Shown: positions 15,172 through 39,857 of the stretch, one piece after another
Position numbering within the stretch: position 1 is the first letter of the stretch
How the letters are laid out: the number at the start of each line of letters is the position of its first letter
Assembly (NCBI GenBank): GCA_033762715.1
Contig: JANRLL010000012.1
Coordinates: 27,113 to 91,112 of the forward strand
Origin: Rickettsiales bacterium
GTDB lineage: Bacteria; Pseudomonadota; Alphaproteobacteria; Rickettsiales; SXRF01
Length of the DNA stretch: 64,000 nucleotides
Direction: 5' to 3'
Position numbers and translations under genes: made by a program
Notes under the pieces: generated by a model
Seen by the model: the letters and a program-made list of their open reading frames with translations, nothing else
Told to the model about the DNA's origin: nothing
Database searches by the model: none

Positions 15172-15338
15172 GGACATCCAGCACCTATTCACCGCCGACA
15201 CGCCTGGTTCAATTAGGCAAGGAGCCCTTCAAGGAATAAGCAAGAGTGGCCGCCAGAGCGGGCCATCCCTTAACAAATATTAAATATTGTGACAAGCATT
15301 GGCTGATGGGTTAAAGTAAGCGGCATTAGGAGATGACC

Positions 15339-21060: not shown

Positions 21061-24000
21061 CTAAACTGTCTTCGCGGACAGCAATTCCAGATTGCCACCG
21101 ACAGCAGCGCTGTTGATGGTGACTGTGCGTTCGGTTACAAAGCGCGTCAGGTAATGCGGTCCGCCGGCTTTAGGGCCAGTTCCAGACAGGCCTTCACCGC
21201 CAAACGGCTGTACACCCACCACCGCACCGATCATGCTGCGATTCACATAATAATTGCCAGCATGCACACGCGATAAGAAGAACTGAATGTTATCATCAAT
21301 GCGACTATGGATGCCAAAGGTTAGGCCAAAACCGGTCGCATTAATGCTATCGGCCACCAATTCGCGATGGGCCGCTGAAAAGCGCACCACATGCAAGATC
21401 GGGCCGAACTGCTCTTTCGTGAGCGCACCCAAGTGAGCAATTTCAAAAATATGCGGCGCGACATAATGCGCGGTGGTTGGCAGATGACTAATATCGCCGC
21501 GCGCCACCAGCTTAGCACTGCGCTCCATTTCGGCAATATGCGCATAGAGACCACGCTTGGCTTCGGCATCGATCACCGGCCCCATATCCGTATCGAATTG
21601 AGCCGGATCGCCAATGGCAATTTCCTGCAACGCGCCACGTAGCAATTGCAGCAAATCATCGGCAATATCTTCCTGCGCGAATAATACACGCAGCGCCGAA
21701 CAGCGCTGGCCAGCACTGCCAAAGGCCGAGAGCATGATGTCATCCACCGCTTGCTCCAATAAGGCGGAGCTATCTACCACCATGCAATTCTGCCCGCCGG
21801 TTTCTGCAATCAGCGGCACAATTGCGCCTTTGCGTTGCGCCAAGGTTTGGTTGATCGCCTGCGCAGTTTCCACCGATCCGGTAAAGACCACGCCGCCAAT
21901 AGCCGGATGCGCTACCAGCGCTTTGCCAATGCTGGGTCCGTCACCTACTGACAGCTGCACCACTGATTCAGGAATACCGACACTATGCAAAATCTCGATC
22001 GCACGTTTGGCAATGGCAGGGGTTTGTTCGGCAGGTTTCGCAATCACACTATTGCCCGTCACTAGAGCCGCTGCCACCTGCCCCATGAAAATCGCCAATG
22101 GGAAATTCCATGGGCTGATGCAAATAAAGACACCGCGCGGATGCAAGCTAAGGCGATTCGACTCCCCAGTCGGCCCAGGAAGGCGCAGCTCGCCCTGCGT
22201 GGTTCTCGCCAGATGGGCATAGTAGCGGCAAAAATCTGCCGCTTCACGTATTTCAGCAATACCATCAGGAATGGTTTTCTTGGCCTCCGCTATCAGAAGC
22301 GCGAGCAACTCATCATGCGCCTGCTCGATAGCATCTGCTGCCTTATCCAGCAGCGACGCACGCGCCTGCACTGAAAGCGGGCCCCAAATCGATTGCGCGA
22401 CCTGCGCGCTTTTCATCATGCCTTCTATCTCAGCTGCAATGGTTTCCTGAGGGGGCGTTATGGGGCGAGCCAAATGCTGATCCAGCGATTGGCGCAGCGT
22501 TTGAGCTTCAGCAAGATTACCTAGATCGATGCCCATCGAATTTTTGCGTTCGCTGCCATAGATATCCACCGGCAAGGCAATCGCCGGATTCGGTGAGATA
22601 CCCTGCTCTTGTACGGTTTTGGCCGGATTCACAATAATCTCTTCCAGGCTGCGATCCTTATCCATCAAGAGATTCACAAAGCTGGTATTGGCGCCATTTT
22701 CCAATAGGCGACGAATCAAATAAGCGAGCAAATCCTTATGCGCACCCACCGGTGCATAAATACGGCTAGCCACTTGCGGCACAATTAAATTATGCAGGCT
22801 TTCGCCCATGCCATGCAGGCGCTGCAATTCATATTGCTGAGAAGACACGCCATAATGCTTTGCCAGTGCTTCAATGGTTGCGATGGTGCGAGCATTATGG
22901 GTAGCAAATTGTGGATAAAACGCGTCGACTTGGCTAAGCATTGTATCGGCGCACGCCATATATGAAATATCGGTATGTTCTTTGCGGGTGAAAACCGGAT
23001 AGCCCCTCAGACCATTAATCTGCGACCATTTTATTTCGGAATCCCAATAGGCGCCTTTTACCAATCGCACTGGAATGCGCTTTTTGCAGTGGCGTGATAG
23101 CGCAGCTAGAAACTGGATCGCATCCATAGCACGCTTCTGATAGGCCTGCACCACATAGCCCAAGCCCTGATAATCAGCCAGCTCAGGATCTTCCAGCAGC
23201 GCTTGGAACAGATGCAATTGAATGTCCAGTCGTGTGGCTTCTTCGGCATCGAGTGAAATAGCAATGCGTTTGGATTTAGCGAGCAAAGCCAATTCTTTCA
23301 CACGCGGCAATAGCTCTTTCACCACTCGATCCAGCTTGGTCAAATGATAGCGCGGATGCAAGGCTGATAGCTTGATCGAGACACTCGCTGCCTCCAAAAT
23401 CGACGCCGTGCTGCCTTCGCCGACACAATTAATGGCATGCCTATAGCTGGCAAGATAGAAATCCGCCTGTGCTTGGCTGCGCGCGCCCTCACCCAGCATA
23501 TCATAGGAAAAACGATAGCCTTTTTTGGCATACGATTTCGCCTGTTTCAGCGCATCTTCAATACTCTCACCCAGCACAAATTGCTGACCGATGTAGCGCA
23601 TGGCTTTTTTGAGCGCCTCGCGGATAATCGGTTCACCAAATTTGCCCACCAGCTTGCCTAAAATATTCGATGCACCCTCCTGGCCCAAATTGACCACCTT
23701 GCCAGTGAGCAACAATCCCCAGCTGGAGGCATTGACCATCAGCGAATCGCTATGACCCAAATGCCGGTCCCATTCGGTATGTTCAAAAGTGGAATGAATC
23801 AGGCGGTCAGCCGTCTGCGCATCAGGAATGCGCAAGAGCGCTTCCGCCAAGCACATGATCGCCACGCCCTCTTTCGAATCAAGGCCGTATTCCTGCAGGA
23901 AGGCTTCTACCCCATGCCCAGGGCCTTCGCTGCGCAAGGTGCGCACCCATTCTTCTGCCCGTTGGTGGATTGCATTTTCAAAAGCAGCAACCGGTGCGAT

Positions 24001-24096
24001 ATGCTCTAGCAGCTGGTTGACCTGGGTTACTTCGTCAGTAAAAGCCTTGCCGCTAATTGCCAGTCGCATCTGATTTAGTGAGCTATCCATACACAC
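21061..24096 (-). CDS. putA: Bifunctional proline dehydrogenase / L-glutamate-gamma-semialdehyde dehydrogenase
   Basis: 1011 aa. It has a PRODH barrel (YDMLGE, RLVKGAYWDSE) and an ALDH domain (FTGSVETA, GGQNCMVVD, EEFGP-like FGPILHV). No N-terminal RHH DNA-binding domain is present. Confidence 0.95.
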   Translation of the reverse strand: MCMDSSLNQMRLAISGKAFTDEVTQVNQLLEHIAPVAAFENAIHQRAEEWVRTLRSEGPGHGVEAFLQEYGLDSKEGVAIMCLAEALLRIPDAQTADRLIHSTFEHTEWDRHLGHSDSLMVNASSWGLLLTGKVVNLGQEGASNILGKLVGKFGEPIIREALKKAMRYIGQQFVLGESIEDALKQAKSYAKKGYRFSYDMLGEGARSQAQADFYLASYRHAINCVGEGSTASILEAASVSIKLSALHPRYHLTKLDRVVKELLPRVKELALLAKSKRIAISLDAEEATRLDIQLHLFQALLEDPELADYQGLGYVVQAYQKRAMDAIQFLAALSRHCKKRIPVRLVKGAYWDSEIKWSQINGLRGYPVFTRKEHTDISYMACADTMLSQVDAFYPQFATHNARTIATIEALAKHYGVSSQQYELQRLHGMGESLHNLIVPQVASRIYAPVGAHKDLLAYLIRRLLENGANTSFVNLLMDKDRSLEEIIVNPAKTVQEQGISPNPAIALPVDIYGSERKNSMGIDLGNLAEAQTLRQSLDQHLARPITPPQETIAAEIEGMMKSAQVAQSIWGPLSVQARASLLDKAADAIEQAHDELLALLIAEAKKTIPDGIAEIREAADFCRYYAHLARTTQGELRLPGPTGESNRLSLHPRGVFICISPWNFPLAIFMGQVAAALVTGNSVIAKPAEQTPAIAKRAIEILHSVGIPESVVQLSVGDGPSIGKALVAHPAIGGVVFTGSVETAQAINQTLAQRKGAIVPLIAETGGQNCMVVDSSALLEQAVDDIMLSAFGSAGQRCSALRVLFAQEDIADDLLQLLRGALQEIAIGDPAQFDTDMGPVIDAEAKRGLYAHIAEMERSAKLVARGDISHLPTTAHYVAPHIFEIAHLGALTKEQFGPILHVVRFSAAHRELVADSINATGFGLTFGIHSRIDDNIQFFLSRVHAGNYYVNRSMIGAVVGVQPFGGEGLSGTGPKAGGPHYLTRFVTERTVTINSAAVGGNLELLSAKTV

Positions 24097-27394: not shown

Positions 27395-29446
27395 GTGGCA
27401 AAAGAAGCGCCCCATATAGCCATTGTCGGTAGCGGTATCTCGGCTAATACCTTTGCTGAGGAGCTATTGGAGCGCGTCCAAAAAGACAAAAGCCTGCTTC
27501 CGCTGGAGCTGGATATTTATGAGGCTGGTGCGCAATTACAAAACGGCATCGCCTGGGACCCCTCCGGTCGTTATTTTCACCGCGAGACGATCTATTTTTC
27601 TACCGACTATATTAAAAAAGTTGCCGAAGCCATTCGGAACGATCCGTCATTGGTCAATGGCGATATGCGCCATCTCGATGTGGAGCGTCATGAAGTAAGC
27701 CGCGCCTTAAGCGGGAAAATGCGCAAACGACGAATGGAGCGCATGCTTGAAAATTTAGAAAGCGCTGGCGTAAAAATACATCGTCACACCAATTGTACGA
27801 TTGTAGATGTGCAGAAACAAGAGGATGGCTATAATCTGATTTCGGCCACCGGCAAACACTACCATGCCGATTATGCAACCATTGCCACCGGGCATTGGCA
27901 AGGCCAAGGCGCATTAAACAGCCACCCTGGTATATATGATTCCCCCTGGCCTGCCAGCAAACTCGAAGCCATTGACACTAATCAGTCCATTGCCGTGATG
28001 GGCACTAGTTTAAGTGCGGTCGACGCCATGCTAACCTTGGCCCATCAAGCAGGGCATTTTGAACGTGATGCCGATAATAAACTGCATTTTATTCCCAATC
28101 CCGAAAATCCCGCATTCGCACTTGAGGCCTATTCGCCGCATGGCATGCTGCCTGGGGGGAAAGGCAAAACCTTGGGGCTACGAAACATACTGTCTTCTAG
28201 CGCTATTGAGCGACTTAAAGACAAAGACGGCGTTATCTTACTGGATGCAGTATTTGCTGCCATGAGTAATGATTTCATGCGCTATTCGGGTGTTGATAAC
28301 AGTCCCATAACTGCTAAAATCAGGCGGACGCTCACTAAGCAGCCGCTAAAATTAGAAGATGCCGTCAACGCGGTATATGAGGCCTATGAGAAAACCGGAC
28401 CGACCGAATGGCTGCGCATACAATGTGATTTGGCGAAAGAATCCCGAAAAAACGACACTACTATTTCTTGGCAAAATTATTTAATCAACGCGATGTACGC
28501 GATAGATAAGGCTTACCCATATTTCAGCGCTGAAGATAAAGACCGCTTTTCAGAATATATCCAGCCGCTTTATATGAAACTGGCGGTGCCTATGGTGCAA
28601 GGTAATGCTGAAGAAATATTGGCGTTATTAGAAAGTGATCGCCTCCATGTGCATAGGCTAGGCAAACACCACTCATTGGGTACTGCGCGTAACGGCAATG
28701 ATAAGCTACCAGGCGCTGAGATCCGCTATACCGACCAGCAAGGCCATGAACATTACGCACATCATGCTGTAGTAATCAAAGCATCAGGCGATGATGCCCG
28801 CCAATTAAGGCATTCTTCTGAACTGATGAAAAATCTATTCGCTTCAGGCATAGTACAATCGCCTACGAGTGCCTATCACAACAGTTCGGCGGGAGCAAAG
28901 GCGCATATAGACGAGTTGAAATCAGGTGGCGCGCAACGTACTTTTTATAAAGATGGCCGTTACTACCGCGATGATGGCGGCATTCTAGTCGATCCGCATC
29001 GACTATCGGTTATACCCACTCAGGGGCCATCAAAAAAATCTAGTCGCCTCTATGTGATGGGACCACTTTTAGCAGCTAACATGCCGCTGCCACATGGAAC
29101 CATCTCACTTAATGATGCCGCTCATTCTATTTTAGACGATATCCAAAATGAGATCCTCACTGAGCGTTGGCAGGCACATGCTAATAAACCCACGCAAGAG
29201 CCAGAGGCTTTACTGGGTTTTACCCAAGTTACAAAACCCGATGGCAGCGATCATATGGTTGCGATTGTTAAAGAACGTGTAGGACTTGTGCAAACCACCG
29301 CCATCAAAGAATATGTGGCATCCCATACAGGTTATCATCCCAAGAATGTAGAAATTTCTACCTACGCTGAACTAGAGCCCACTGTGCAAGATCTGGTTGC
29401 TAATATGGGCGTTTTCCCGCAAGCTGCGCCCGGTCATTCGTACTAA
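27395..29446 (+). CDS. FAD/NAD(P)-binding domain protein of unknown function (NAD_binding_9-like)
   Basis: 683 aa, GTG start with an AAGGGA RBS. It has the N-terminal dinucleotide motif IAIVGSGISANTFA and a second motif IAVMGTSLSAVDAMLTLA. The C-terminal ~250 aa have no motif I recognise. Confidence 0.6.
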   Translation: MAKEAPHIAIVGSGISANTFAEELLERVQKDKSLLPLELDIYEAGAQLQNGIAWDPSGRYFHRETIYFSTDYIKKVAEAIRNDPSLVNGDMRHLDVERHEVSRALSGKMRKRRMERMLENLESAGVKIHRHTNCTIVDVQKQEDGYNLISATGKHYHADYATIATGHWQGQGALNSHPGIYDSPWPASKLEAIDTNQSIAVMGTSLSAVDAMLTLAHQAGHFERDADNKLHFIPNPENPAFALEAYSPHGMLPGGKGKTLGLRNILSSSAIERLKDKDGVILLDAVFAAMSNDFMRYSGVDNSPITAKIRRTLTKQPLKLEDAVNAVYEAYEKTGPTEWLRIQCDLAKESRKNDTTISWQNYLINAMYAIDKAYPYFSAEDKDRFSEYIQPLYMKLAVPMVQGNAEEILALLESDRLHVHRLGKHHSLGTARNGNDKLPGAEIRYTDQQGHEHYAHHAVVIKASGDDARQLRHSSELMKNLFASGIVQSPTSAYHNSSAGAKAHIDELKSGGAQRTFYKDGRYYRDDGGILVDPHRLSVIPTQGPSKKSSRLYVMGPLLAANMPLPHGTISLNDAAHSILDDIQNEILTERWQAHANKPTQEPEALLGFTQVTKPDGSDHMVAIVKERVGLVQTTAIKEYVASHTGYHPKNVEISTYAELEPTVQDLVANMGVFPQAAPGHSY

Positions 29447-29458
29447 AAGGCGCCGTTC

Positions 29459-30961
29459 ATGCTGTTTAATGAAGAGTTATTCATTACGCTTTTCCTGCCG
29501 ATATGGTTGATGGCATTTGGCCTTATAATCCCTCGCTCGAAGCGACTGGTCGCTCACAGCATCATTATTGTCGCCTCGCTGATTTTTTACAGCGCCTACG
29601 ACTACACCCTTACCTATGTGTTGCTGCTATCAATTGCAATCAATTACATCACCTGCCAGCGTATCCGCAGCAGTCTTTATGCTAAGCGCTATCTATACTT
29701 GAACCTGGCCTTTAACATCGGCACCCTCGCCTATTTTAAATATAGCTGCTTCCTGCTGGAAAACGCTGCCTTACTGCTGGCATTAAAGCCCACCGTTTGC
29801 GATGTTACCTTGCCACTGGGCATTTCGTTTTTCACCTTTCAGCAGATTGCTTTTTGCGTCGATAGCTACCGCAATCGCAACCAGCCCGTTCATGCCAGCA
29901 GCTATATGGCCTTTGTCACTTTCTTTCCGCATCTCATCGCTGGCCCCATTGTGCGCCGGAAGGATCTCTACGAGGCACTCGATAATGAAAGCTACCGGTT
30001 AAGCAGGCCCAACCTGGAAATAGGTCTTGCCTGTTTCCTCTATGGGTTTCTGCAAAAGGTGATGTTGGCCGATCCTCTGGCCATTATCGTCAATGCAAGT
30101 TTTACCACCGCCAATGAGCGGGTGCTTACATTTGCCGAAAGTATACTCGCGTCATTTGCCTTCACTGGTCAGATTTATTTTGATTTCAACGGTTATTCAA
30201 CCATGGCCATCGGTCTTGCCTGGATGATTGGTATTGCGCTGCCTAGCAACTTTGAAACACCTTACCGTTCGCGCTCCATCACCGATTTCTGGAAACGTTG
30301 GCACATCACGCTGGGCAGCTTCTTTCGCGATTATGTCTATATTCCCTTAGGCGGCAATCAACACGGATTACACCGCCAATGCCTTTTTTTGCTGATCACC
30401 ATGCTGCTGTGTGGCCTGTGGCATGGCGCTGGTTGGACCTTTATTCTTTGGGGTGTGCTCAATGGCATCGCATTGGTCACAGCCCTGCTCTATCGACGCT
30501 ATGTGCCGCTGCCTATACCCGCGCTTCTGGGTTGGCTGCTTACTTTTGTTTTTGTGGTGATGGGCTGGGTGCTATTTCGTGCCGAATCCTTTGCCAGCGC
30601 CATAAATGTATTTGTAGGATTCCTCGCCTGGGATACGCAAACCATCACTGCGTTTTCCGAGTCCTATAAGCAGGCAATCCGGCAAATCATTCCTTCTTCT
30701 TTTACCACAGAAGCTATTTTATTGCCGCAAGAGCTGATCCAAACCATCGCCTGTACCCATGTGGCCTTTGCCATGCTTGCCGCGCTGCTATTACCGTCGA
30801 GCACCCATATTATCATGCTCTATGACCGCCTAGTGCATAGCGGCAAACAGCAAGCCTATATTCTGCGCATCGCCTTGGCAGTGATAAGCGCCGTGGTGCT
30901 AGCCAAGCTCTTACAGATACAGTCTTACACCGCCGTCAACTTTATCTATTTCAATTTTTAG
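29459..30961 (+). CDS. MBOAT-family membrane-bound O-acyltransferase (AlgI/DltB/PatA-like)
   Basis: 500 aa and multi-TM. It has the GISFFTFQ motif, FWKRWHITLGSFFRDYVYIPLGGN and the conserved His in LCGLWHGAGW. Confidence 0.85.
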   Translation: MLFNEELFITLFLPIWLMAFGLIIPRSKRLVAHSIIIVASLIFYSAYDYTLTYVLLLSIAINYITCQRIRSSLYAKRYLYLNLAFNIGTLAYFKYSCFLLENAALLLALKPTVCDVTLPLGISFFTFQQIAFCVDSYRNRNQPVHASSYMAFVTFFPHLIAGPIVRRKDLYEALDNESYRLSRPNLEIGLACFLYGFLQKVMLADPLAIIVNASFTTANERVLTFAESILASFAFTGQIYFDFNGYSTMAIGLAWMIGIALPSNFETPYRSRSITDFWKRWHITLGSFFRDYVYIPLGGNQHGLHRQCLFLLITMLLCGLWHGAGWTFILWGVLNGIALVTALLYRRYVPLPIPALLGWLLTFVFVVMGWVLFRAESFASAINVFVGFLAWDTQTITAFSESYKQAIRQIIPSSFTTEAILLPQELIQTIACTHVAFAMLAALLLPSSTHIIMLYDRLVHSGKQQAYILRIALAVISAVVLAKLLQIQSYTAVNFIYFNF

Positions 30962-30962
30962 T

Positions 30963-31880
30963 ATGAAACAGTTGATCCCTTTATTGCTATTTACCGCGGT
31001 GCTGATGAGTCTGGAGCTGTCATCCTTTTCGCAGGCCATTCGCGCATCAAATGCCTGGCTACATGATAGCGATCATCGCCTACCGAATATTCGCGTAGCA
31101 CCGGTGCAATGCCGCCTAAGCTTTGTACGGGAATTTATTGAACTGCAACCCTGGACGGAACGTAAAACCATTGCCTTCTTTGGCGATTCTCATATGTTTG
31201 GCAATGGACACCCGCTGGAAAATACTATTCCCTACCTAGCCACCCCCAGCCCTTACCTGCCAATTAATTTATCCATCATTAATGCGCATCCAGACGACAT
31301 CGTCAATGTTCTAGAGCTATTAGAGTATAAGCAGATTAAACCTGACATGAGCATTGCCACCATCAAGCATACGCATTTTAAAAAGTTCCGATCCAAAGGT
31401 GGGGTAGAAACGCGAGTTAACCTGCTTAGCTACCTACCCTATAATCTGGGCTATTATTATTGCGCCGCGCGCTATCGCAATACCATTGAGCCTTATTTTA
31501 CAGAGCGGTTAAATAAACCAAGAGAAACCTATAGCCATATAGAACTCGGTGATCGCTATATGCAGATAAACGGCAAGGCCATTGATCGCTACCTGCCACC
31601 GATGTTGGAAAAATTATCTGAGACTAAAAGGCCAACGCTGGTCTATCTTCTGCCACATGCGTTGGAAGCATTTGATGAGTATGGATTTAACAAAAAGGAC
31701 TACCGTGAGATATCACGCTATTTAATGCAGCTTTGTACCCGTTATCGAGGCGTGGAATGCTTAGATTTATCAGAGCGCCTCACCTTGCCCTATTTTCACG
31801 ATGTAGCCCATCCCAACTCCAAGGGTATTCATGCAATCAGCGAACTATTGCAAACACGCATTCGCGCGTTACAACCCTAA
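30963..31880 (+). CDS. SGNH/GDSL-like hydrolase-fold protein (AlgJ/X- or PatB-like partner of MBOAT)
   Basis: 305 aa with an N-terminal signal/anchor. It has a block I-like FFGDSHMFGNG and a block V-like DVAHPNSKG. It lies 1 nt downstream of the MBOAT gene. Confidence 0.5.
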   Translation: MKQLIPLLLFTAVLMSLELSSFSQAIRASNAWLHDSDHRLPNIRVAPVQCRLSFVREFIELQPWTERKTIAFFGDSHMFGNGHPLENTIPYLATPSPYLPINLSIINAHPDDIVNVLELLEYKQIKPDMSIATIKHTHFKKFRSKGGVETRVNLLSYLPYNLGYYYCAARYRNTIEPYFTERLNKPRETYSHIELGDRYMQINGKAIDRYLPPMLEKLSETKRPTLVYLLPHALEAFDEYGFNKKDYREISRYLMQLCTRYRGVECLDLSERLTLPYFHDVAHPNSKGIHAISELLQTRIRALQP

Positions 31881-32470
31881 TCTTTCCAGAGGGTCTTGAG
31901 CTTTTCTTCACGGCCACTGCCGGTTTTATAAGCATTATAGCGCAACGGGTTCTTTTTATAATAATCCTGGTGATACTCTTCGGCCGGATAGAAAATGGCC
32001 GCTTTCGTAATGGCAGTGGCAATAGCAAGGCCTAATTTCTTTTGTTTGGCATCGCGTGATAGCTCGGCGGCGCGGCGCTGTTCTTCGCTGGTATAAAAAA
32101 TCTCGGTGCGATACTGGCTGCCGCGATCATAAAACTGACCGCCTGCATCCGTAGGATCAATATTACCCCAATAAATATCGAGCAATTTTTCATAGGTGAC
32201 AACAGCCGGATCATAAACCACCTCTATGGCTTCCGCATGTCCGGTGTGGCCACTGCTGACCTGCTCATAGGTAGGATTCTCGACCTGCCCGCCAATATAG
32301 CCTGATGTTACCGAAACCACTCCTGGGGTGCCTTGAAACTCTGCTTCCGTGCACCAAAAGCAGCCACCGGCAAAAATCGCACGTTCTGTTTTATTATCCA
32401 TGGCCAATGCGCCTCCTGGTAACGAGTTATAGGAAAAAAACCATAAGGTGAGGTAAATAAAAAATCGCAT
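31877..32470 (-). CDS. msrA: Peptide-methionine (S)-S-oxide reductase
   Basis: It has the GCFWC active site, HTGHAEAI, and a C-terminal EEYHQDYYKKNP. The ATG at 32470 adds a signal-peptide-like MRFFIYLTLWFFSYNSLPGGALA. The alternative ATG at 32401 is preceded by AGGAGG at 10 nt. Confidence 0.9.
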   Translation of the reverse strand: MRFFIYLTLWFFSYNSLPGGALAMDNKTERAIFAGGCFWCTEAEFQGTPGVVSVTSGYIGGQVENPTYEQVSSGHTGHAEAIEVVYDPAVVTYEKLLDIYWGNIDPTDAGGQFYDRGSQYRTEIFYTSEEQRRAAELSRDAKQKKLGLAIATAITKAAIFYPAEEYHQDYYKKNPLRYNAYKTGSGREEKLKTLWKD

Positions 32471-32480
32471 GGGTAACAAT

Positions 32481-32690
32481 CTATTTTCTAACAGCTAGAT
32501 CGACAATAAAGCGATCGGCCTGCTGCTTGTTTATGAGCTGCCCGTTCCAATTGAGCTGGGTATAGTCACCTGCGGAAATATAGCCTTCCTGCGCAACGTA
32601 GCGTTCAACGGCAAAGGCACCACGCTCCGGTATTGCCGTCACACGGTAAAGCTGGCGATCTAATACATAATATTCATATTGCGGTGCCAT
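32481..32690 (-). CDS. Small hypothetical protein (69-74 aa), candidate cognate partner of the upstream RelA/SpoT-like gene
   Basis: This ORF immediately follows, or overlaps, the 401-aa gene. The ATG at 32690 gives TAA-T-ATG spacing, and the GTG at 32705 gives a 14-nt overlap. I recognise no family for it. Confidence 0.45.
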   Translation of the reverse strand: MAPQYEYYVLDRQLYRVTAIPERGAFAVERYVAQEGYISAGDYTQLNWNGQLINKQQADRFIVDLAVRK

Positions 32691-32691
32691 A

Positions 32692-33897
32692 TTATCGTTT
32701 TGCACTCACTTTAGGTGGTTGCACATTATGTTCCAGCGCTTGATAAACCGCTTGCAAATCATCCGGCATTTTCTCAGCTGCATCGAGATGAATTTGCTTC
32801 GCTGCCGCTTCTAATTCTCGGTAGCGGTAGAAAAGCTTGAGCCCTTTAAAATCACCAATCTCCTTAGGTGAGAGCGGCGCGCGCTCAGCCGCGTTATGAC
32901 TTAAATACTTGGTCAACCAGTTATAGGTCTCTTTCATACGCTCCAGTGTCGCATTGCTAAAGTTATCGCCATGAATGACGGTTTCATTGCCAATCTTTTT
33001 CGACATGTCGCGCATCAACTCATACACGCGATGTGAGGTGCGATCAATTTCAGCCATCGAGCGCGGTAAGATTTGTACTTCGCACACACGATCATCCAGC
33101 AACATACATACCTTCATATCCATAAGGCCGCGCTTATTGACGGTCCAGCCTTCGGTCGACATGGGGCCACGCTCCGAAAAATAATCGCAGAGTTTCTGCG
33201 CCATTTCATCCGAATCCACCACAATGCGCACGCGATTTAAATCGGCAATATCGGAAAGGGTGAGTTTTTTGGTGCGGAGTTTTCGCTGCACGCTATCACG
33301 CGTTTTCGCGCCGTTTTCTTGCATGCACAAATAGTTGGGGCTGCGGCCTTCTTCTTGGAAACATTCATTGATATCATGGACATAATTATTGGGTGATCGA
33401 GAAATCGTATAGGATTTCTTACCTTCTATCTCGTCTTCGTGGATGGCAATTTGTTGCTGAGGATACTCGCGGTTAAATTGCTCAATCGCTTCGCGTAATT
33501 CGGGACTGAGTGTTAACGCTAGATTATTACGCACCTCATCAAATTCAGCACTTAAGCTATTTGATTCATCATTGTCCTTATCAAGGCGCTTGAGATATTC
33601 TCCACACGCGTCACGATTGCGCCGAAGCGGCACTACTTCTGTTTCATAATAGCGCTCCAGTGAACCGGTATTGGTAATATCGGTAGGAAGCTCTTGCGAA
33701 CGCAGAGCATCATCATTTTGATTTATGACCGCTAGGCGCGAGGCATACATGGCCCGGGCGCATAATTTAATCAGCTCTTTTTGGCGCGGCACGTTGTCTT
33801 GCATAAATTCATCGAGCGTTCGAATTCTGCCCTGCTCGGAGCTTTCCGCCAGCTGACGGTATGAAACATGATTGATATGCGGCTTACGCGAAGACAC
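32692..33897 (-). CDS. Hypothetical protein with a divergent RelA/SpoT (RSH)-like nucleotidyltransferase core
   Basis: 401 aa, GTG start. Residues ~197-297 read AKTRDSVQRKLRTKKLTLSDIADLNRVRIVVDS...RGLMDMKVCMLLDDRVCEVQILPRSMAEIDRTSHRVYE. This parallels the RSH synthetase motifs (RxKxxxSxxxK; DxxGxRhhh; EhQhRT). The call is by eye only. Confidence 0.5.
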   Translation of the reverse strand: MSSRKPHINHVSYRQLAESSEQGRIRTLDEFMQDNVPRQKELIKLCARAMYASRLAVINQNDDALRSQELPTDITNTGSLERYYETEVVPLRRNRDACGEYLKRLDKDNDESNSLSAEFDEVRNNLALTLSPELREAIEQFNREYPQQQIAIHEDEIEGKKSYTISRSPNNYVHDINECFQEEGRSPNYLCMQENGAKTRDSVQRKLRTKKLTLSDIADLNRVRIVVDSDEMAQKLCDYFSERGPMSTEGWTVNKRGLMDMKVCMLLDDRVCEVQILPRSMAEIDRTSHRVYELMRDMSKKIGNETVIHGDNFSNATLERMKETYNWLTKYLSHNAAERAPLSPKEIGDFKGLKLFYRYRELEAAAKQIHLDAAEKMPDDLQAVYQALEHNVQPPKVSAKR

Positions 33898-33968
33898 GAA
33901 TATTCTACCTAAATCTGTAGGGGTTACAAAACCGTATCAAAGAAAGACCGGTAATATTTTAAGCAGGT

Positions 33969-33997
33969 ATTATATAAAATTAGTTAATATCTGTCGA
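33969..33997 (-). promoter_or_regulatory. Sigma70-like promoter TCGACA-17 nt-TATAAT upstream of the RelA/SpoT-like gene
   Basis: On the minus strand, -35 TCGACA lies at 33997..33992 and -10 TATAAT at 33974..33969, with 17-nt spacing. It lies over the 3' end of the OMF gene, about 70 nt upstream of the GTG at 33897. Confidence 0.4.
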
Positions 33998-35470
33998 TGG
34001 GGTTTCTTGCACCGGCTTAGGCTCTTCCCAACCCCCACCCAGTGCGCGAATCAGGGTAATGGTGGCTACAAAACGCTGTAGCTGGGTCTGAATATAGACG
34101 CGCTCGGCTGCTACCGAATCACGCTGATTAATGACTAGATCTATATGATCCACATCACCTTCTTCAAAACGTTTTTTGATGAGTTCAAAACTACGTTTGG
34201 CGGCAATCGCCGATTGCTCAACTGTTTTAGATTGTTCGGCCAGTAATCGTTGATCGCTTAGGCTGTTTTCTGCATCACGGAATGCAACCAATACCTGCTG
34301 ACGGTACGTAGCGACAGCTTCTTCATAGGCCGCTTTAGCCGAATCGAGATTGCCAAAATTACGGCCGCTGTCAAATATCGGCATGGTGATCGCGCTGCCT
34401 GCGGTCTGGCCTAACGCCCAGCTGCGGCTCGACCATTGGAACAAATCACCCAGTTCTGTGGATTCCACACCGCCATTAGCGGTCAATGCAATGCGTGGGA
34501 AGAAGGCCGTACGGGCAACACCTATGCGCAAATTAGCAGCCTGCATGTTTGCCATGGCAGCAGCAATATCGGGGCGACGCGCCAAAAGCTCCGACGGCAG
34601 GCCAGCCGGAATCGCAGGCGGCACACCGTCTAATGGTTTTCCTTCCCAGCTAAATTCAGACGGCATTTTTCCAAGCAAGGTAGCCAGCATATTTTGCGTA
34701 GAGTTCCGCTCACGCTCGGTTGCGGTCAGTTCGGTTTTTGCCGTGGCCACATCCGCTTGTGTTTTAGCAAAATCGGACTCACTGACAGCGCCTAGCTCCA
34801 TCTTCTTTTGCATAATGCGCAGTTCTTCTTCGCGTTCGGCTAGAGTGTCGCGCAATAATATATATTGGCTATCGAGCGCACGCAGCATGTAATAATGTTG
34901 TGCCACATCAGCTTGCAGCGCCAACAAGACGCTGCGGTAATTAGCTTCCTGTGCCTGGGTATCAAACATATAAGCACGGTAGCCATCATGCACACGGCCT
35001 AATAAATCCAACTCATATGAAAGTACCCCACCGACGCTAAACATATTATAAGGCTTCAAAGTAGTGGCCTGGCCGCCAAAGGCAGCATTCGATGCATCAG
35101 CTGGCTTAGCGCGCACAGCATTAGCACCCACATCTAAATCAGGAATGAGACTTGGGCTTCTCGATTGTGCAAGTCCGCGTGCCTGTTCAACCCTGCTCGC
35201 TGCTATTTTAAGATTTGGGTTGGCTTCCGCTGCTTGCTTTTGCAAGTCATCGAGCGTGCTGTCTTGGAATATTTTCCACCACTGACCGCGATCTTCTTGT
35301 GCCAATGGCTCCAGCGCTTTCCACCGCCCCTGCTCTTGCAGGATATCTACTTGGGGCGCAACTTCTTTGAATTGCTCCGGCACCTTCATATCAGGCGCGA
35401 CAAAATCAGGCGCCAGGCTGCAGCTTGTCAGCATCGTCGTTACGGCAAAAAGATAGAGCGCCTTATGCAT
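33980..35470 (-). CDS. RND efflux outer-membrane factor lipoprotein (NodT/OprM family)
   Basis: 496 aa with a lipobox (LTSC). It has the two-repeat OMF pattern and the C-terminal LIRALGGGW. Confidence 0.9.
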   Translation of the reverse strand: MHKALYLFAVTTMLTSCSLAPDFVAPDMKVPEQFKEVAPQVDILQEQGRWKALEPLAQEDRGQWWKIFQDSTLDDLQKQAAEANPNLKIAASRVEQARGLAQSRSPSLIPDLDVGANAVRAKPADASNAAFGGQATTLKPYNMFSVGGVLSYELDLLGRVHDGYRAYMFDTQAQEANYRSVLLALQADVAQHYYMLRALDSQYILLRDTLAEREEELRIMQKKMELGAVSESDFAKTQADVATAKTELTATERERNSTQNMLATLLGKMPSEFSWEGKPLDGVPPAIPAGLPSELLARRPDIAAAMANMQAANLRIGVARTAFFPRIALTANGGVESTELGDLFQWSSRSWALGQTAGSAITMPIFDSGRNFGNLDSAKAAYEEAVATYRQQVLVAFRDAENSLSDQRLLAEQSKTVEQSAIAAKRSFELIKKRFEEGDVDHIDLVINQRDSVAAERVYIQTQLQRFVATITLIRALGGGWEEPKPVQETPSTDIN

Positions 35471-38400
35471 GCGGATGCTCCTGCGAGTGAATGGGACATT
35501 CGCCAGCCGTATGCAATTTATTACCCACCAGGTTACGAAGCCCTACATAAAATACCGGTGTCAAAAACAATCCGAAGAACGTCACACCTAACATACCTGA
35601 AAACACGGCAACACCCATGGCATGGCGCATTTCTGCCCCTGCGCCGGTCGACATTACCAGTGGCACCACCCCCATGATGAAGGCAAATGATGTCATCAAA
35701 ATTGGGCGAAGACGCATGCGTGTAGCTTCGATGGCGGCTTCTAGTGGCGTACTTCCTTGAATCTCTAATTCGCGCGCAAATTCGACGATCAAGATCGCAT
35801 TCTTACATGCAAGCCCCACCAACACCATCAGGCCGATCTGGGTAAAGATATTATTGTCGCCGTTGGTAAGCCAAACGCCAAAAATAGCACACAGCAAACA
35901 CATCGGAACGATAAGAATGACTGCAAGCGGTAGCGATAGGCTTTCATATTGCGCAGCCAACACCAAAAACACCAGCAATACGCAAAGCGGAAACACCAAG
36001 ATCGCCGTATTGCCGGCAAGAATCTGCTGATAGGAAAGTTCTGTCCATTCGTAACTAACGCCTTTGGGTATAGTTTGCTTAATGATTTGCTCGATGGCTG
36101 CTTGCGCTTCGCCAGTCGAATATCCCTTAGCGGGCCCGCTATTAATATCGGCGGTGCGATACGCATTGTAGCGCATAGCACGCTCCGGCCCATAGCTTTG
36201 CTTGACGGTAACAACGCTACCAAGCGGCACCATTTCACCGACGGCGTTGCGCACTTTCAGCTTGGTAATATCGTCTGCATGCGCTCGATACGGCATGTCA
36301 GCTTGGGCAATAACGCGGTAGGTGCGGCCAAATTTATTAAAGTCGTTGATATAGAGTGAGCCTAAGTAAATCTGCATCGTGTCAAAAATATCGGTGATCG
36401 CAATACCGAGCTGTTTGGCTTTGGTGCGGTCAATATCGACTTGCAATTGCGGCACATTGATCTGATAGCCGCTATAGGTTTGATGGGGATCGAGCTGTGG
36501 GATTTTACCGCTGTAAATCTGTCCTAATATTGCATCTTTTACGCCGGAGAATTCTTCTTCCGATAAATCGACACGATTTTGCAGCTGCAACTTAAACCCG
36601 CCCGATGTACCCAATCCCAAAATCGGCGGCGGCGGCAAGACCAACACGAACGCATCTTTAATCGCGCCAAACTGCATGTTGACCTTTTGCGCAATGGCAC
36701 TGGCCGATAACTCAGAAGAATTGCGCTCAGAAAAATCAGTGAGCGGCAGAAACACAATGCCGGCGCTTGAGCTGTTGGTAAAGCCATTGATGGAAAGACC
36801 TGGAAACGCCACCGCATGTGCGATGCCAGGGGTTTTCATGGTGATCTCCGACATTTGGCGGATCACTTTTTCGGTACGGTCAAGCGACGAGCCATCCGGC
36901 AATTGCGCAAAGCCAATCAGATATTGTTTATCTTGCGCGGGCACATAGCCTGTGGGCACTTTATAGAAAGCAAACGCCGTTAAGCAAACAAGCACAAGAT
37001 ACAAGGTAAAGGCTAATCGTTTGCGGCCCAACACACGGGTTACACGCCTGGAGTAATTATCAGAAGCCGAGCTAAAGAAACGATTGAACCAGGCAAAAAA
37101 TCGCCCAAAACGTGCATCCATCCAGCGCGTAAGCCAGTCTTTTGGTGCGTCGTGCGGCTTGAGCAGCAACGCGGCCATAGCCGGCGATAGGGTGAGCGAG
37201 TTGAAAGCAGAAATCACCGTGGAAATTGCAATGGTGAGCGCAAACTGGCGGTAAAATTGGCCGGTGAGACCGCTAATAAATGCGATGGGCACAAACACCG
37301 CAATCAAGCTCAGTGCGATCGCGATAATGGGTCCGCTTACTTCGCGCATGGCTTGGTACGTAGCATCACGCGGGCTTAAGCCCGCTTCAATATTACGCTC
37401 GACATTCTCCACCACCACGATTGCATCATCGACCACGATTCCGATCGCAAGTACCAGGCCAAACAGGGACAACGCGTTAATCGAAAAGCCCATCAACAGC
37501 AAAAAGGCAAAGGTACCAATAATCGATACCGGCACGGCAAGTAGTGGAATGATCGAAGCGCGCCATGTCTGTAGAAACAAGATTACCACCAGCACCACCA
37601 GCGCCACGGCTTCAAGCAAGGTATGGATTACCGCCTTGATAGAATCACGCACGAAGGAGGTCGGATCATAGACAATGCTGTAATCGACATCCTCGGGGAA
37701 ATCATGTTTGAGCTCTTCCATCAACGCACGCACATTGTCGGATATCTCAAGTGAATTGGAGCCAGGCATTTGGAAAATGCCCAGTGCGACCGCGGGCTTA
37801 TTATCCAGCAATGAGCGCAGCGCATATTGCGAGCCACCCAGCTCTATGCGCGCCACATCGCGCAAGCGCGTTACCGCACCCGTTTTATCGGTTTTGATAA
37901 TGATATTGCCGAATTCTTCTTCGGTTTGCAGGCGGCCTTGCGCATTGACGTTGAGTTGCAGCTCCACATCTTTGGCCGAAGGCGAAGCGCCGATCACACC
38001 GGCCGCCACCTGTACGTTCTGCTCACGGATAGCAGCAACAACCATGCTGGCACTCATGCCACGCGCAGCGATCTTATCGGGATCAAGCCATAGGCGCATC
38101 GAATAATCGCTACCGCCAAAAATCTCTACCTGGCCAATACCGGAAATACGCTGCAACCGGTCTTTGATATTAAGCGTGGCGTAGTTGCTCAGATACAGTG
38201 GATCATAACCACTTTTGGGCGAAAGGATATGCACCACCATGGTAAGATCCGACGAGCTTTTTACCGTGGTCACACCAAACTGGCGCACGATGTCGGGCAA
38301 GCGCGGCAAGGCCTGATTCACGCGGTTCTGCACCAGCTGCTGCGCCTTATCGGCATCGGTGCCAATCTTGAAGGTAATGGTCAGGTTCATTTGACCATCA

Positions 38401-38657
38401 GAGGTGCCTTGCGAGAACATATACAGCATGTTTTCCACGCCATTGATTTGCTCTTCGAGCGGCGCTGCCACGGTCTCTGCAATCACCTTTGGATTGGCTC
38501 CTGGATATTGCGCAATCACCTGCACCGAGGGCGGCACCACTTCGGGATATTCTGAAATCGGTAACTGCCAAATCGAAATGGCTCCACCGATAAAAATCAG
38601 TAGCGAAAGCACCGCAGCAAAAATAGGCCGGTCAATGAAGAAGCGAGAAATATTCAT
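35463..38657 (-). CDS. RND multidrug efflux permease (AcrB/MexB family)
   Basis: 1064 aa. The N-terminus is MNISRFFIDRPIFAAVLSL, with 12-TM topology and the VDDAIVVVENVER motif. Confidence 0.95.
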   Translation of the reverse strand: MNISRFFIDRPIFAAVLSLLIFIGGAISIWQLPISEYPEVVPPSVQVIAQYPGANPKVIAETVAAPLEEQINGVENMLYMFSQGTSDGQMNLTITFKIGTDADKAQQLVQNRVNQALPRLPDIVRQFGVTTVKSSSDLTMVVHILSPKSGYDPLYLSNYATLNIKDRLQRISGIGQVEIFGGSDYSMRLWLDPDKIAARGMSASMVVAAIREQNVQVAAGVIGASPSAKDVELQLNVNAQGRLQTEEEFGNIIIKTDKTGAVTRLRDVARIELGGSQYALRSLLDNKPAVALGIFQMPGSNSLEISDNVRALMEELKHDFPEDVDYSIVYDPTSFVRDSIKAVIHTLLEAVALVVLVVILFLQTWRASIIPLLAVPVSIIGTFAFLLLMGFSINALSLFGLVLAIGIVVDDAIVVVENVERNIEAGLSPRDATYQAMREVSGPIIAIALSLIAVFVPIAFISGLTGQFYRQFALTIAISTVISAFNSLTLSPAMAALLLKPHDAPKDWLTRWMDARFGRFFAWFNRFFSSASDNYSRRVTRVLGRKRLAFTLYLVLVCLTAFAFYKVPTGYVPAQDKQYLIGFAQLPDGSSLDRTEKVIRQMSEITMKTPGIAHAVAFPGLSINGFTNSSSAGIVFLPLTDFSERNSSELSASAIAQKVNMQFGAIKDAFVLVLPPPPILGLGTSGGFKLQLQNRVDLSEEEFSGVKDAILGQIYSGKIPQLDPHQTYSGYQINVPQLQVDIDRTKAKQLGIAITDIFDTMQIYLGSLYINDFNKFGRTYRVIAQADMPYRAHADDITKLKVRNAVGEMVPLGSVVTVKQSYGPERAMRYNAYRTADINSGPAKGYSTGEAQAAIEQIIKQTIPKGVSYEWTELSYQQILAGNTAILVFPLCVLLVFLVLAAQYESLSLPLAVILIVPMCLLCAIFGVWLTNGDNNIFTQIGLMVLVGLACKNAILIVEFARELEIQGSTPLEAAIEATRMRLRPILMTSFAFIMGVVPLVMSTGAGAEMRHAMGVAVFSGMLGVTFFGLFLTPVFYVGLRNLVGNKLHTAGECPIHSQEHPHA

Positions 38658-38659
38658 GA

Positions 38660-39826
38660 CTACTGCGTAACCTCAGCCTTCGGTTCCACTTCCTCTTTCG
38701 GCGTATTTGATAGGACATCAGCTGGTTTGTCCAATGGCGTACCGTCCATATGCATTGGCTCAGGCGTAACCGGCTGGCCTGGCATCATCACACGCTGCAA
38801 CCCGCTTACAACAATGCGCTCGCCTGGTTTGAGGCCTTCTTCTACAATGCGCAACCCATCAGCGGTATCACCGAGCTTGAGTTCGCGGCGCTCGGTTTTT
38901 CCATCGTCGCCTACCACAATGACGAATTTCTTGCTCTGATCGGTGCCAATCGCACGATCCGTCACCAAAATGGCGGAGCGGCTGGCAACGCTACCCATTT
39001 TAATGCGCGCAAACAAGCCAGGCACCAACGCGCCGTCTTCATTATCAAAAATGGCGCGCACACGTACCGTGCCTGAGCCAGTATTCAAACGGTTGTCGAA
39101 AGATTCGACATGGCCATCACGTTTCACATCATTAGCCAACCACAGCTCAACCGGCACTTCTTTCGGATCGGATGTGGTGGTAGCGCCTTCCTTGGCGTAA
39201 TCAATATAGGCGGCTTCGTCGATTTCAAAATCGGCGTAAATAGGGCTGCTAGATACAACCGAGGTCAGCACGGCTGCCCCTGCTTCCACTAAATTACCCA
39301 CCGTGATTTCCGCGCGGCCTACACGACCTTCAATCGGAGACATCACTTTGGTATAACCTAAATCCAGTTGCGCTTTGGTGAAATCTGCCTTGGCGACATC
39401 GTAATCATTTTTGCGCTGATCGAATTCGCGCTGCGAAATCGCTTTGCTTTCCAGCAAGGATTGCGCGCGGTCAAAATCGGCTTTGGCCAAATCATGGCGC
39501 GCTTTAGCAGAAAGCTGTGCGGCTTCAAAAGGTTTGGGATCGATGACAAAGAGCAAAGCGCCTTTTTTAACCAACGAACCGCTGGTAAAATGAATCGACT
39601 CAATGGTGCCCGATATGCGTGGACGAATATCAACTTGATCCACCGCCACCAAACGACCTGAGAATTCCTTCCATTGGCGCACATCGCGCTCAATGACTTC
39701 TGCCACGCCCACGGGCGGTGCACCACCAGCTGCCGAAGGGTCGCCCTGCCCGATAAAATGCCCGTAAGCATAATAAAGACCGCCGGCAATCGCCACAAAC
39801 ACAATCAATTTAGCGAAACGATTCAT
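38660..39826 (-). CDS. RND efflux periplasmic adaptor (membrane fusion protein)
   Basis: It has an AcrA/MexA-like lipoyl and hairpin pattern (RPRISGTI, YTKVMSPIEGRVGR). The ATG at 39826 is preceded by AAGGA 7 nt upstream. The ORF-track start at 39853 is less likely. Confidence 0.9.
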   Translation of the reverse strand: MNRFAKLIVFVAIAGGLYYAYGHFIGQGDPSAAGGAPPVGVAEVIERDVRQWKEFSGRLVAVDQVDIRPRISGTIESIHFTSGSLVKKGALLFVIDPKPFEAAQLSAKARHDLAKADFDRAQSLLESKAISQREFDQRKNDYDVAKADFTKAQLDLGYTKVMSPIEGRVGRAEITVGNLVEAGAAVLTSVVSSSPIYADFEIDEAAYIDYAKEGATTTSDPKEVPVELWLANDVKRDGHVESFDNRLNTGSGTVRVRAIFDNEDGALVPGLFARIKMGSVASRSAILVTDRAIGTDQSKKFVIVVGDDGKTERRELKLGDTADGLRIVEEGLKPGERIVVSGLQRVMMPGQPVTPEPMHMDGTPLDKPADVLSNTPKEEVEPKAEVTQ

Positions 39827-39841
39827 GAGGAATTCCTTTAT

Positions 39842-39857
39842 GTTCTTGAGCAAGAAC
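39842..39857. promoter_or_regulatory. Perfect inverted repeat GTTCTTG-AG-CAAGAAC in the 5' leader of the efflux operon
   Basis: The 7-bp arms lie at 39842-39848 and 39851-39857, 16 nt upstream of the proposed MFP start. It could be an operator or an mRNA hairpin. Confidence 0.3.

Follow-up and report, generated by a model that had tools for sequence, protein, structure and literature searches.

A divergent RSH-fold protein and its small downstream partner: probably a new and rare toxin-antitoxin or toxin-immunity pair

Introduction

Toxic pyrophosphokinases with a RelA/SpoT homolog (RSH) fold that are encoded with a small neutralizer are already a well-known kind of system. Here we analyze a candidate relative, a pair of genes on the minus strand of a 64,000-nucleotide stretch of contig JANRLL010000012.1 (hereafter the window), in which a 401-residue, divergent RSH-fold protein is followed by a protein of 69 residues. 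The pair is probably a new and rare toxin-antitoxin or toxin-immunity pair, a new branch of the known system. As far as sequence comparison can tell, what is new is a lineage of three members that lies under Pfam detection and has novel terminal regions, its own versions of syn3 and syn4, and a partner for which no relative can be detected.

Several described systems are close enough for comparison, and they belong to an active field that takes in (p)ppApp synthetases borne by phages and by type VI secretion systems (T6SS), tRNA-pyrophosphorylating toxins of phage defense, and exported alarmone synthetases. Tas1 (Apk1) and Tis1 are the effector and immunity protein of a Pseudomonas aeruginosa T6SS (6OX6), and the Apk2 MuF polymorphic toxins are taken here together with the RelA/SpoT modules that occur in phage polyvalent proteins (PMC12226406, PMC5512222, PMC5576092). 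The exported alarmone synthetases SaEAS, VpEAS, and AaEAS belong to the Apk1-like clan (PMC12691689; 8VX3), whose members yield (p)ppApp, (p)ppGpp, or the two together (PMC12691689). The toxic small alarmone synthetases (toxSAS), among them FaRel, FaRel2 with its antitoxin ATfaRel2, PhRel, PhRel2, and CapRel (PMC7229694, PMC11782079), are encoded by conserved bicistronic small alarmone synthetase (SAS) loci, and toxicity was correctly predicted from such loci in five of five tested subfamilies (PMC7229694). ATfaRel2-type antitoxins accompany tRNA-targeting toxSAS, and Tis1-like domains accompany (p)ppApp synthetases (PMC11782079).

Results and Discussion

Two Adjacent Genes Are Conserved Together in Unrelated Contexts

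On the minus strand of the window, genes for a membrane-fusion protein (MFP), an RND pump, and an outer-membrane factor (OMF) are followed by the 401-residue open reading frame (ORF), by a small ORF of 69 or 74 residues, and then by msrA. The original prediction had described the large ORF, with its coordinates and GTG start, and two possible geometries for the small ORF, and all of these are as it described them: an ATG at 32690 gives a TAA-T-ATG junction, and a GTG start gives a 14-nucleotide overlap. The features of the pair are as follows.

32692..33897, minus strand: 401-residue coding sequence with a GTG start, encoding a divergent RSH-fold protein and putative toxin (from the ORF; NCBI MDX1975242.1, "hypothetical")
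33331..33897, minus strand: N-terminal region, residues 1-189 (from the AlphaFold2 secondary structure)
32998..33330, minus strand: SYNTH-like catalytic core, residues 190-300 (from the family profile, Foldseek, and the motif table)
32695..32997, minus strand: C-terminal helical region, residues 301-401 (from the AlphaFold2 secondary structure and match ranges)
32688..32694, minus strand: gene junction TAA-T-ATG (read directly in the sequence)
32481..32690, minus strand: 69-residue coding sequence with its ATG at 32690, putative antitoxin or immunity partner (NCBI MDX1975241.1 is the 69-residue form, "hypothetical")
32481..32705, minus strand: alternative 74-residue form of the small coding sequence, with a GTG start, overlapping the 401-residue ORF by 14 nucleotides

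The TAA-T-ATG junction suggests that translation of the 401-residue and 69-residue genes may be coupled.

An exhaustive phmmer search of 1.84 billion representative proteins with the 401-residue sequence gave 24 hits, the query included. Two of these are full-length homologs, P0002 (431 residues, E = 2e-41) and P0003 (478 residues, E = 6e-39), and directly downstream of each, on the same strand, is a gene of 71 or 73 residues whose product is homologous to the small protein of the window (37% identity, E = 2e-18, and 33% identity, E = 1e-13). The pairing proposed for the window is thus found again beside both homologs: every full-length member of the family (three of three) has a homologous small gene directly downstream, at a spacing of -4 to +4 nucleotides (TAA-T-ATG in the window, TAA-ACTT-ATG in locus L001, and an ATGA overlap in locus L002). 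Because each protein is conserved on two independent contigs, the two genes are to be read as more than chance ORFs.

The flanks of the three cassettes are unrelated. In the window they are the RND-OMF genes and msrA; in L001 they are kdpA, a gene of 177 residues, and the type I restriction-modification methylase gene hsdM; and in L002 there is an ABC ATPase gene. The upstream neighbor is divergent in both L001 and L002, and the cassette must therefore have its own promoter and form its own transcription unit there. A terminator-like hairpin lies about 150 nucleotides after the small gene of L001.

The family is very rare. A word-indexed search of 5.8 billion clusters with the 401-residue protein returned that protein alone, and a profile of the three small proteins, searched against the same clusters, retrieved only the same three. 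Both proteins of the window pair, P0002, and P0003 are each a singleton cluster (four of four proteins looked up). Searches of genome, metagenome, and viral contig collections for close-family loci found no relative, and neither NCBI accession is mentioned in the literature searched. Within the window there are neither paralogs of the pair nor orphan copies of the partner gene.

The 401-Residue Protein Has an RSH Synthetase Fold

The original prediction proposed an RSH fold on the strength of motif-like strings within residues ~197-297 (nucleotides ~33007-33309). The strings are present where it placed them, at residues 197-211, 214-227, and 272-281. The Pfam model PF04607 (RelA_SpoT) matches the 401-residue protein with E = 4.7e-4 and 20.8 bits over profile positions 4-51 of 113, which is below the gathering cutoff of 27 bits. 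As a single sequence, the protein has no match in NCBIfam, PADLOC, or PHROGs, and a phmmer search of the PDB gave only noise. No PADLOC model detects either protein of the pair. The locus is therefore one that standard annotation overlooks, being under the Pfam threshold, outside PADLOC, and labeled hypothetical.

More sensitive comparisons place the protein among the RSH synthetases. Apart from the two full-length homologs, the remaining 21 relatives match mainly residues ~192-300, although some reach ~390, and 8 of the 24 match RelA_SpoT on their own (best E = 6.9e-7). Other relatives carry Portal_Mu, ddrB-ParB, ART-PolyVal, Acb1, or SLT modules, by which they are recognizable as phage "polyvalent" or MuF-type proteins. 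A profile of the domain shared by the 24 sequences was searched against the PDB and gave 25 hits at E <= 1, of which the leading entries are listed here.

Tas1 (6OX6): E = 1.4e-11
SAS SMU.1046c (3L9D): E = 6.3e-6
SAS 2BE3: E = 3.7e-5
SaEAS: E = 8e-4
RelP: E = 8e-4
RelSeq: E = 1e-3
RelA: E = 1.5e-3

There was no non-RSH match below E = 0.1. As a control for profile drift we used a profile made only from the trio of the window protein, P0002, and P0003. Its top five PDB matches were all GTP pyrophosphokinases, with weak E values of 0.0095-0.54, and Tas1 was not among the structures reached, so the statement that Tas1 is the closest solved relative leans on the distant family members as intermediates.

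The AlphaFold2 model of the 401-residue protein (pLDDT 84.7, pTM 0.82) and its Foldseek matches agree on the SYNTH fold, in which helices frame a sheet of five strands. The best 46 Foldseek matches in the PDB were all RSH synthetases (RelP, RelQ, Tas1, Rel, and SaEAS), most with a probability of 0.9-1.0, and the TM-score to the target was 0.40-0.45 for targets of SAS size. Matches in the viral fold library were to RelA/SpoT modules within polyvalent proteins of phages and to a phage protein that bears the name Tas1. Despite the subthreshold Pfam score, then, the proposed fold is upheld by the family profile and by a Foldseek search whose best PDB matches are all RSH synthetases, and we regard the predicted RSH assignment as robust.

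The Catalytic Residues Are Intact and the Acceptor-Site Motifs Are Divergent

The 24 domains were aligned by hmmalign with Tas1, SaEAS, and SAS fragments, and the motifs compare as follows.

syn1: window G-A-K198-T-R-D-S202-V-Q-R-K206; family G-x-K-T-x-x-S-x-x-x-K; Tas1 P-I-K...; SAS R-V-K...
syn2: window D219-L-N-R222-V-R224; family D-x-x-R; Tas1 D-L-A-R-N-T; SaEAS D-A-V-R-Y-T (Ala121 stems from the D121A crystal); SAS D-I-A-G-L-R
syn3: window G257-L258-M-D260-M-K262; family G-Y-x-D-R-K; Tas1 G-Y-S-G-V-N; SaEAS G-Y-K-G-L-N; SAS G-Y-R-S-Y-H
syn4: window E273-V-Q275-I-L-P278; family E-x-Q-x-x-P; Tas1 E-I-Q-V-N-S; SaEAS E-V-Q-F-H-T; SAS E-I-Q-I-R-T
syn5: window H289-R-V-Y292-E293-L-M-R296; family H-x-x-Y-E-x-x-R; Tas1 G-H-K-Y-Y-E-D-W-R; SaEAS T-H-K-L-Y-E-E-Q-R

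The donor-site and catalytic residues are all present in the window protein (K198, S202, K206, D219, E273, Q275, H289, and Y292), and K198, K206, D219, and R222 are invariant in 24 of 24 sequences. Within syn1 the window protein lacks the leading Arg. The original prediction read an Asn in place of the Gly of DxxGxR, but this reading is off by one residue: the Gly position is occupied by Arg222, which is the signature of the Tas1/SaEAS type, and the window protein retains the canonical Arg224 besides Arg222.

The aromatic residue of the G-loop stacks on the acceptor base. At this position the window protein has Leu258, P0002 has Phe, and P0003 has Tyr. The structures and binding assays of FaRel2 used a Y128F variant of the same position (PMC11782079). 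Sequence signatures of acceptor type have been described, namely syn2 R-Y-T, syn3 G-x-N, and syn4 Y-H for the adenosine type and S-x-H and I-R for the guanosine type (PMC12226406). The syn3 and syn4 motifs of the window protein match neither, and all that it shares with the adenosine type is the syn2 Arg (R222). Swapping syn motifs does not convert specificity (PMC12226406), and the products of Apk1-like enzymes vary, so the product cannot be called from sequence.

The Terminal Regions Resemble No Solved Structure

The original prediction described a helical N-terminal region. In the AlphaFold2 model it is indeed mostly helical (helices within residues 13-144 and a helix at 171-181), with one β-hairpin at 152-165, and the C-terminal region is helical too (315-335, 352-375, and 379-391). 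Residues ~1-130 are confined to the three close homologs. Residues ~134-189 extend into more distant relatives, and the BLASTP alignment to P0017 begins at residue 134. The C-terminal region is common to the standalone relatives P0009, P0011, and P0014-P0017, to about residue 390.

No relative of the N-terminal region was found in Pfam, the PDB, or PHROGs, and none of the C-terminal region in the PDB; PDB searches with profiles of the two regions gave nothing below E = 0.17. Among the 1.84 billion representatives, no protein matches the N-terminal region alone, and this region is never fused to another toxin domain. A weak SUKH-1/SMI1_KNR4 match (E = 0.02) spanning residues 117-194 was discarded, since none of the family members reached E <= 0.01 for that model.

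The Small Partner Has No Detectable Relative outside the Family

The small protein has no relative in Pfam, PADLOC, or the PDB, and a profile search of the PDB found none at E <= 10. Its AlphaFold2 model is weak (pLDDT 61.6) and shows six strands and a C-terminal helix. The Foldseek matches of this model, HIV integrase among them, all have E >= 0.35 and carry no meaning, and a Ufm1 match of the small protein at E = 0.013 is noise.

Comparison with Described Systems

Tas1 is the best solved match of the family profile, and its Foldseek TM-score to target is 0.44. Like Tas1, the window protein lacks the leading syn1 Arg, has Arg where syn2 canonically has Gly, and shows the H-x-x-Y-E-x-x-R form of syn5; all three traits, which are of the Tas1/SaEAS type, are common to the family. 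In both systems a neutralizer, here a candidate one, is encoded downstream. Unlike Tas1, the window protein has no PAAR or Rhs domain, and there are no T6SS genes among the window ORFs scanned. It also differs at syn3 (G-L-M-D-M-K versus G-Y-S-G-V-N) and at syn4 (E-V-Q-I-L-P versus E-I-Q-V-N-S), and its N-terminal region of ~190 residues and C-terminal region of ~100 residues resemble nothing solved. The partner has no sequence similarity to Tis1, and Foldseek with the weak partner model found nothing below E = 0.35.

The nearest relatives outside the trio resemble the Apk2 MuF toxins and the phage polyvalent RelA/SpoT modules: they are C-terminal domains of proteins of 870-1230 residues that carry Portal_Mu, ddrB-ParB, ART-PolyVal, or Acb1 modules. 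One relative is a protein of 198 residues encoded behind a Mu-type portal and followed by a gene of 68 residues, and the viral fold library agrees with this affinity. In contrast, the window protein is chromosomal and has no MuF or portal domain, with no phage genes among the scanned ORFs of the 64 kb. Its identity to those domains is only 26-33%, and a comparison of the small partners by hhalign (P = 0.084) does not establish that they are homologous.

The resemblance to the toxSAS lies in the arrangement, a conserved and tightly coupled bicistronic locus in variable contexts, and in a partner of ~70 residues, compared with 73 residues in ATfaRel2. The enzyme is likewise predicted to be cytoplasmic, with no export signal, and the L001 cassette adjoins the methylase gene of a type I restriction-modification system. 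However, no FaRel2 or CapRel chain is among the 25 family-profile hits in the PDB, the N- and C-terminal regions of the window protein are novel, and the PADLOC models miss the pair. The partners (69-73 residues, weakly modeled as β-rich with a C-terminal helix) have no sequence similarity to the pZFD antitoxins, which are marked by a YXXY motif; a Y-E-Y-Y string occurs in the small protein of the window but is not conserved in its two homologs.

With the exported alarmone synthetases the window protein shares the Apk1-like clan (profile E = 8e-4 for SaEAS, TM-score to target 0.43-0.45), the syn2 D-x-x-R, and a syn5 comparable to the H-K-L-Y-E-E-Q-R of SaEAS. SaEAS and VpEAS differ from it in possessing a Sec signal peptide and in lacking an immunity gene, whereas the window protein has a hydrophilic N-terminus and a conserved partner. 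The original prediction held that the protein matched no familiar subfamily, which is a fair description: in syn3 and syn4, in the terminal regions, and in the partner it is unlike Tas1/Apk1, Apk2, SaEAS, FaRel2, and CapRel.

Presence of a Small Downstream Gene and Retention of the Catalytic Glu

Small downstream genes also occur in the wider clade. In L009 (genes 1943-4300) the 198-residue RSH-like gene lies right behind the Mu-type portal, the usual MuF place, and is followed with a 4-nucleotide overlap by the 68-residue gene. L011 (19-653) has the same gene pair, with a partner of 71 residues; in a search for the phage-borne subgroup it was the single locus in metagenome contigs, and viral contigs gave none. 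In L010 (308-1191) a 71-residue gene lies 128 nucleotides downstream. The RSH-like members of all three loci are catalytically intact. P0011 and P0009 are tandem paralogs in L003/L005 (Logan SRR24524823 contig 4, genes 292-1416 and 1569-2654); in these proteins Gln or Ser takes the place of the catalytic Glu, and a small partner gene is absent downstream. Both may be pseudoenzymes, or domains put to another use. The catalytic Glu is missing from P0015 and P0016 as well, as judged from their sequences, their loci having been left out of the neighbor comparison. P0017 keeps the catalytic Glu but has Lys in place of the syn4 Gln; it has no partner and is followed by a gene of 146 residues.

Across the clade, in this small sample, retention of the Glu apparently tracks the presence of a ~70-residue downstream gene. 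The correlation fits the notion that an antidote is required only as long as the enzyme retains its activity, and it amounts to a simple rule that can be checked on more genomes. All six ~70-residue partners have a [WF]-x-G-x-x-I/L-x-x-x-[EQ]-[AF] motif near residues 50-62, a motif that was defined post hoc. A single family embracing all of these partners is unsupported (hhalign P values of 0.084 and 0.26; a single pairwise comparison gave P = 7.8e-4).

Transcription and Composition of the Locus

The genes and signals flanking the pair are as follows.

38660..39853, minus strand: MFP gene of the efflux operon
35463..38657, minus strand: RND pump gene of the efflux operon
33980..35470, minus strand: OEP-family OMF gene, the last gene of the MFP-RND-OMF operon
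33969..33997, minus strand: promoter-like TCGACA-17-TATAAT, with 11 of 12 consensus positions, overlapping the OMF stop codon and ~70 nucleotides 5' of the GTG start
33929..33902, minus strand: weaker promoter-like TTGTAA-16-TAGAAT (consensus match)
31877..32479, minus strand: msrA, downstream of the small ORF

The original prediction identified the flanking genes correctly as the OMF gene of an RND efflux system and msrA, and it gave the pair its own promoter. The TCGACA-17-TATAAT sequence is present, and the homologous cassettes imply a promoter of their own; in the window itself, the proposal amounts to a consensus match. Promoter-like sites in the region number 5, compared with 5.7 +/- 2.5 in shuffled sequence, so the TCGACA-17-TATAAT is to be taken as a pattern and not as functional evidence. 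In view of the homologous cassettes, a promoter belonging to the window pair is plausible. There is no terminator between the small ORF and msrA, and read-through is possible in both directions. The first ATG of msrA lies 10 nucleotides past the stop codon of the small ORF, again with no terminator between them, and msrA has two candidate starts: the long form opens with a signal-peptide-like segment (MRFFIYLTLWFFSYNSLPGGALA), and the short form begins at ATG 32401 with AGGAGG ~12 nucleotides upstream.

The original prediction also took the pair for an insertion between the efflux operon and msrA, and a recent insertion finds no support here. The pair has a GC content of 0.47 and a third-position GC content (GC3) of 0.47-0.49, compared with means for window genes of 0.496 +/- 0.030 and 0.519 +/- 0.063, and its codon-usage divergence is ordinary for the window. 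The repeats that flank it are matches of 12-17 nucleotides at most, which is chance size, and no tRNA, integrase, or transposase gene is nearby. The whole 64 kb lacks tRNA and tmRNA genes, and no Rfam family reaches the gathering threshold in it. The nearest OMF relatives are ~60% identical, and their TetR-MFP-RND-OMF operons then run into unrelated genes; neither the pair nor an empty site was seen behind the OMF gene in them. Since the closest OMF relatives are only ~60% identical and nonsyntenic downstream, no empty site can be demonstrated.

A Probable Toxin-Antitoxin-Like Cassette and the Alternatives to It

The reading that we favor, with some reserve, is that the pair is an autonomous, chromosomal toxin-antitoxin-like cassette of the toxSAS/Apk-like kind, which would serve in phage defense or as an addiction module. 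The conserved residues and the fold suggest that the large protein is a cytoplasmic, ATP-dependent 3'-pyrophosphokinase. K198, S202, and K206 would hold the triphosphate of the donor ATP, D219 would bind Mg2+, and E273 and Q275 would catalyze pyrophosphate transfer onto a purine acceptor at its 3'-OH. Our best guess for the acceptor is ATP or ADP, in which case the outcome would be (p)ppApp, depletion of ATP, and growth arrest. The 69-residue protein would be made by translational coupling and would neutralize the enzyme by binding to it directly. The N- and C-terminal helical regions would pack with the catalytic core into one globule, and they probably control access of the substrate or sense a trigger, rather than serving in export. 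Two clues to the substrate disagree, in that the size of the partner is close to that of the 73-residue ATfaRel2, whereas the relatives of the catalytic domain point to the Apk side. For this reason we rank (p)ppApp first and tRNA-CCA second only tentatively.

Several observations weigh against this reading. The PF04607 score lies under the gathering threshold, and only the first half of the domain is covered; the trio-only profile does not reach Tas1; and Leu258 might mean that the window copy is weakened or has an altered acceptor. The partner shows no sequence likeness to Tis1 or to the pZFD antitoxins, and its structural model is weak. The family consists of three members, all metagenomic, so that co-occurrence statistics are thin, and the window pair may simply be transcribed through from the efflux operon into msrA.

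The chief question is whether the large protein stays in the cell. An exported effector resembling Apk1/Tas1 or the exported alarmone synthetases, with a route set by the novel N-terminal region and a small protein that shields the producer, would account for the order of effector then immunity gene and for the tight coupling, both of which are found in the tas1-tis1 and apk2 loci (PMC12691689). It would also suit the T6SS effector Tas1 as the solved structure closest to the family profile, the distant relatives that are C-terminal domains of injected phage polyvalent or MuF-type proteins, the many delivery domains used by the Apk1-like clan (PMC12691689), and the Rickettsiales label of the source assembly. 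Nevertheless, we consider export unlikely. The N-terminus of the protein, MSSRKPHINHVSYRQLAESSEQGR, read directly, is hydrophilic and has no signal peptide, and Pfam detects no PAAR, Rhs, MuF, LXG, or other delivery domain. Among the 1.84 billion representatives the N-terminal region is never found recombined with other toxin domains, as delivery modules of polymorphic toxins are, and the pTM of the AlphaFold2 model is that expected of a single compact body with no tethered delivery domain. The Pfam scan, which covered 40 ORFs of the window and left several of at least 150 residues unscanned, revealed no secretion-system, phage, or mobile-element genes, and no secretion genes lie next to the pair in L001 or L002. 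The lack of a signal peptide or delivery domain, the N-terminus confined to the trio, the compact model, and the ordinary genes of the window together lead us to favor a cytoplasmic module over a secreted effector. A host-directed Rickettsiales effector in particular was judged unlikely because the window encodes metabolism of a free-living type; its gene content does not look host-restricted.

Unlikelier still is a nontoxic, regulated SAS that makes (p)ppGpp or a related signal under oxidative or envelope stress, with the small protein as its regulatory subunit. The RSH fold and intact catalytic residues are compatible with such an enzyme, and so are the ordinary composition of the pair and its position on the same strand as the efflux operon and msrA, where cotranscription is possible and no terminator precedes msrA; some Apk1-like enzymes, moreover, make only (p)ppGpp (PMC12691689). 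Yet the msrA/efflux neighborhood is not conserved, the other two cassettes being in unrelated contexts, and the syn3 motif lacks the S-x-H signature of the guanosine type (PMC12226406). The rarity of the family (3 in 1.84 billion representatives) and its patchiness better suit a selfish or defense cassette, and its relatives are domains of conflict systems. That the window pair is a decaying or attenuated remnant, in which Leu258 costs acceptor binding and a harmless relic is kept with its former antidote, is very improbable. In its favor, the change of the G-loop Tyr to Leu is found in the window protein only, the trio shows erosion of the positively charged residues in the syn3 D-R-K of the family (to D-M-K, D-R-Q, and D-Q-Q), and the catalytic Glu is already gone from several relatives. 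Neither reading frame is interrupted, however, the donor-site and catalytic residues are all kept, and the whole protein is modeled with confidence. The partner gene is also retained with tight coupling, which suggests that neutralization is still needed.

An extension of the toxin-antitoxin reading, which we hold possible but doubtful, is that the trio is a toxSAS lineage with a new acceptor site (syn3 G-[YFL]-M-D-x-x and syn4 E-x-Q-x-x-P), a substrate beyond ATP/ADP, GTP/GDP, and tRNA-CCA, a third structural class of neutralizer besides the Tis1-like and pZFD types, and a helical shell that acts as the sensor of the trigger. If true, the third neutralizer class would overturn the one-to-one correspondence that has been reported for substrate class and mode of neutralization (PMC11782079). 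An assay of the pair would test whether the syn motifs predict acceptor specificity, which has been doubted (PMC12226406), and whether the substrate class goes along with the type of neutralizer, Tis1-like versus pZFD (PMC11782079). Given its great rarity, the family has a moderate general impact, but it is a useful specialist test case for the rules of substrate and neutralization.

Other Genes of the Window

The source of both NCBI proteins is a metagenome-assembled genome labeled "Rickettsiales bacterium." Window genes (for example, at 43373..45242, 12716..14191, 5729..6886, and 21061..24096) include his genes and genes for photolyase, CFA synthase, PutA, LptF/G, and a GGDEF protein, as well as RF3. 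This content looks like that of a free-living alphaproteobacterium, at odds with the label.

A gene at 18551..21055 on the plus strand encodes a protein of 834 residues that contains two AAA+ modules; its N-terminal part, ~350 residues long, matches nothing in Pfam. No other gene of the window is as low in GC and GC3 (0.437 and 0.385). The PADLOC models of IetA match its AAA domain (E = 4e-27), and there is no adjacent IetS-like partner; upstream lie a PRPP-synthetase-like gene (15333..16460) and a gene with a CinA domain (16479..17627). A plus-strand run at 27395..31880, which converges on msrA, encodes a 683-residue FAD/NAD(P)-binding protein, a 500-residue MBOAT O-acyltransferase, and a 305-residue protein with no Pfam match, and it may be a cluster for the acylation of a surface polymer.

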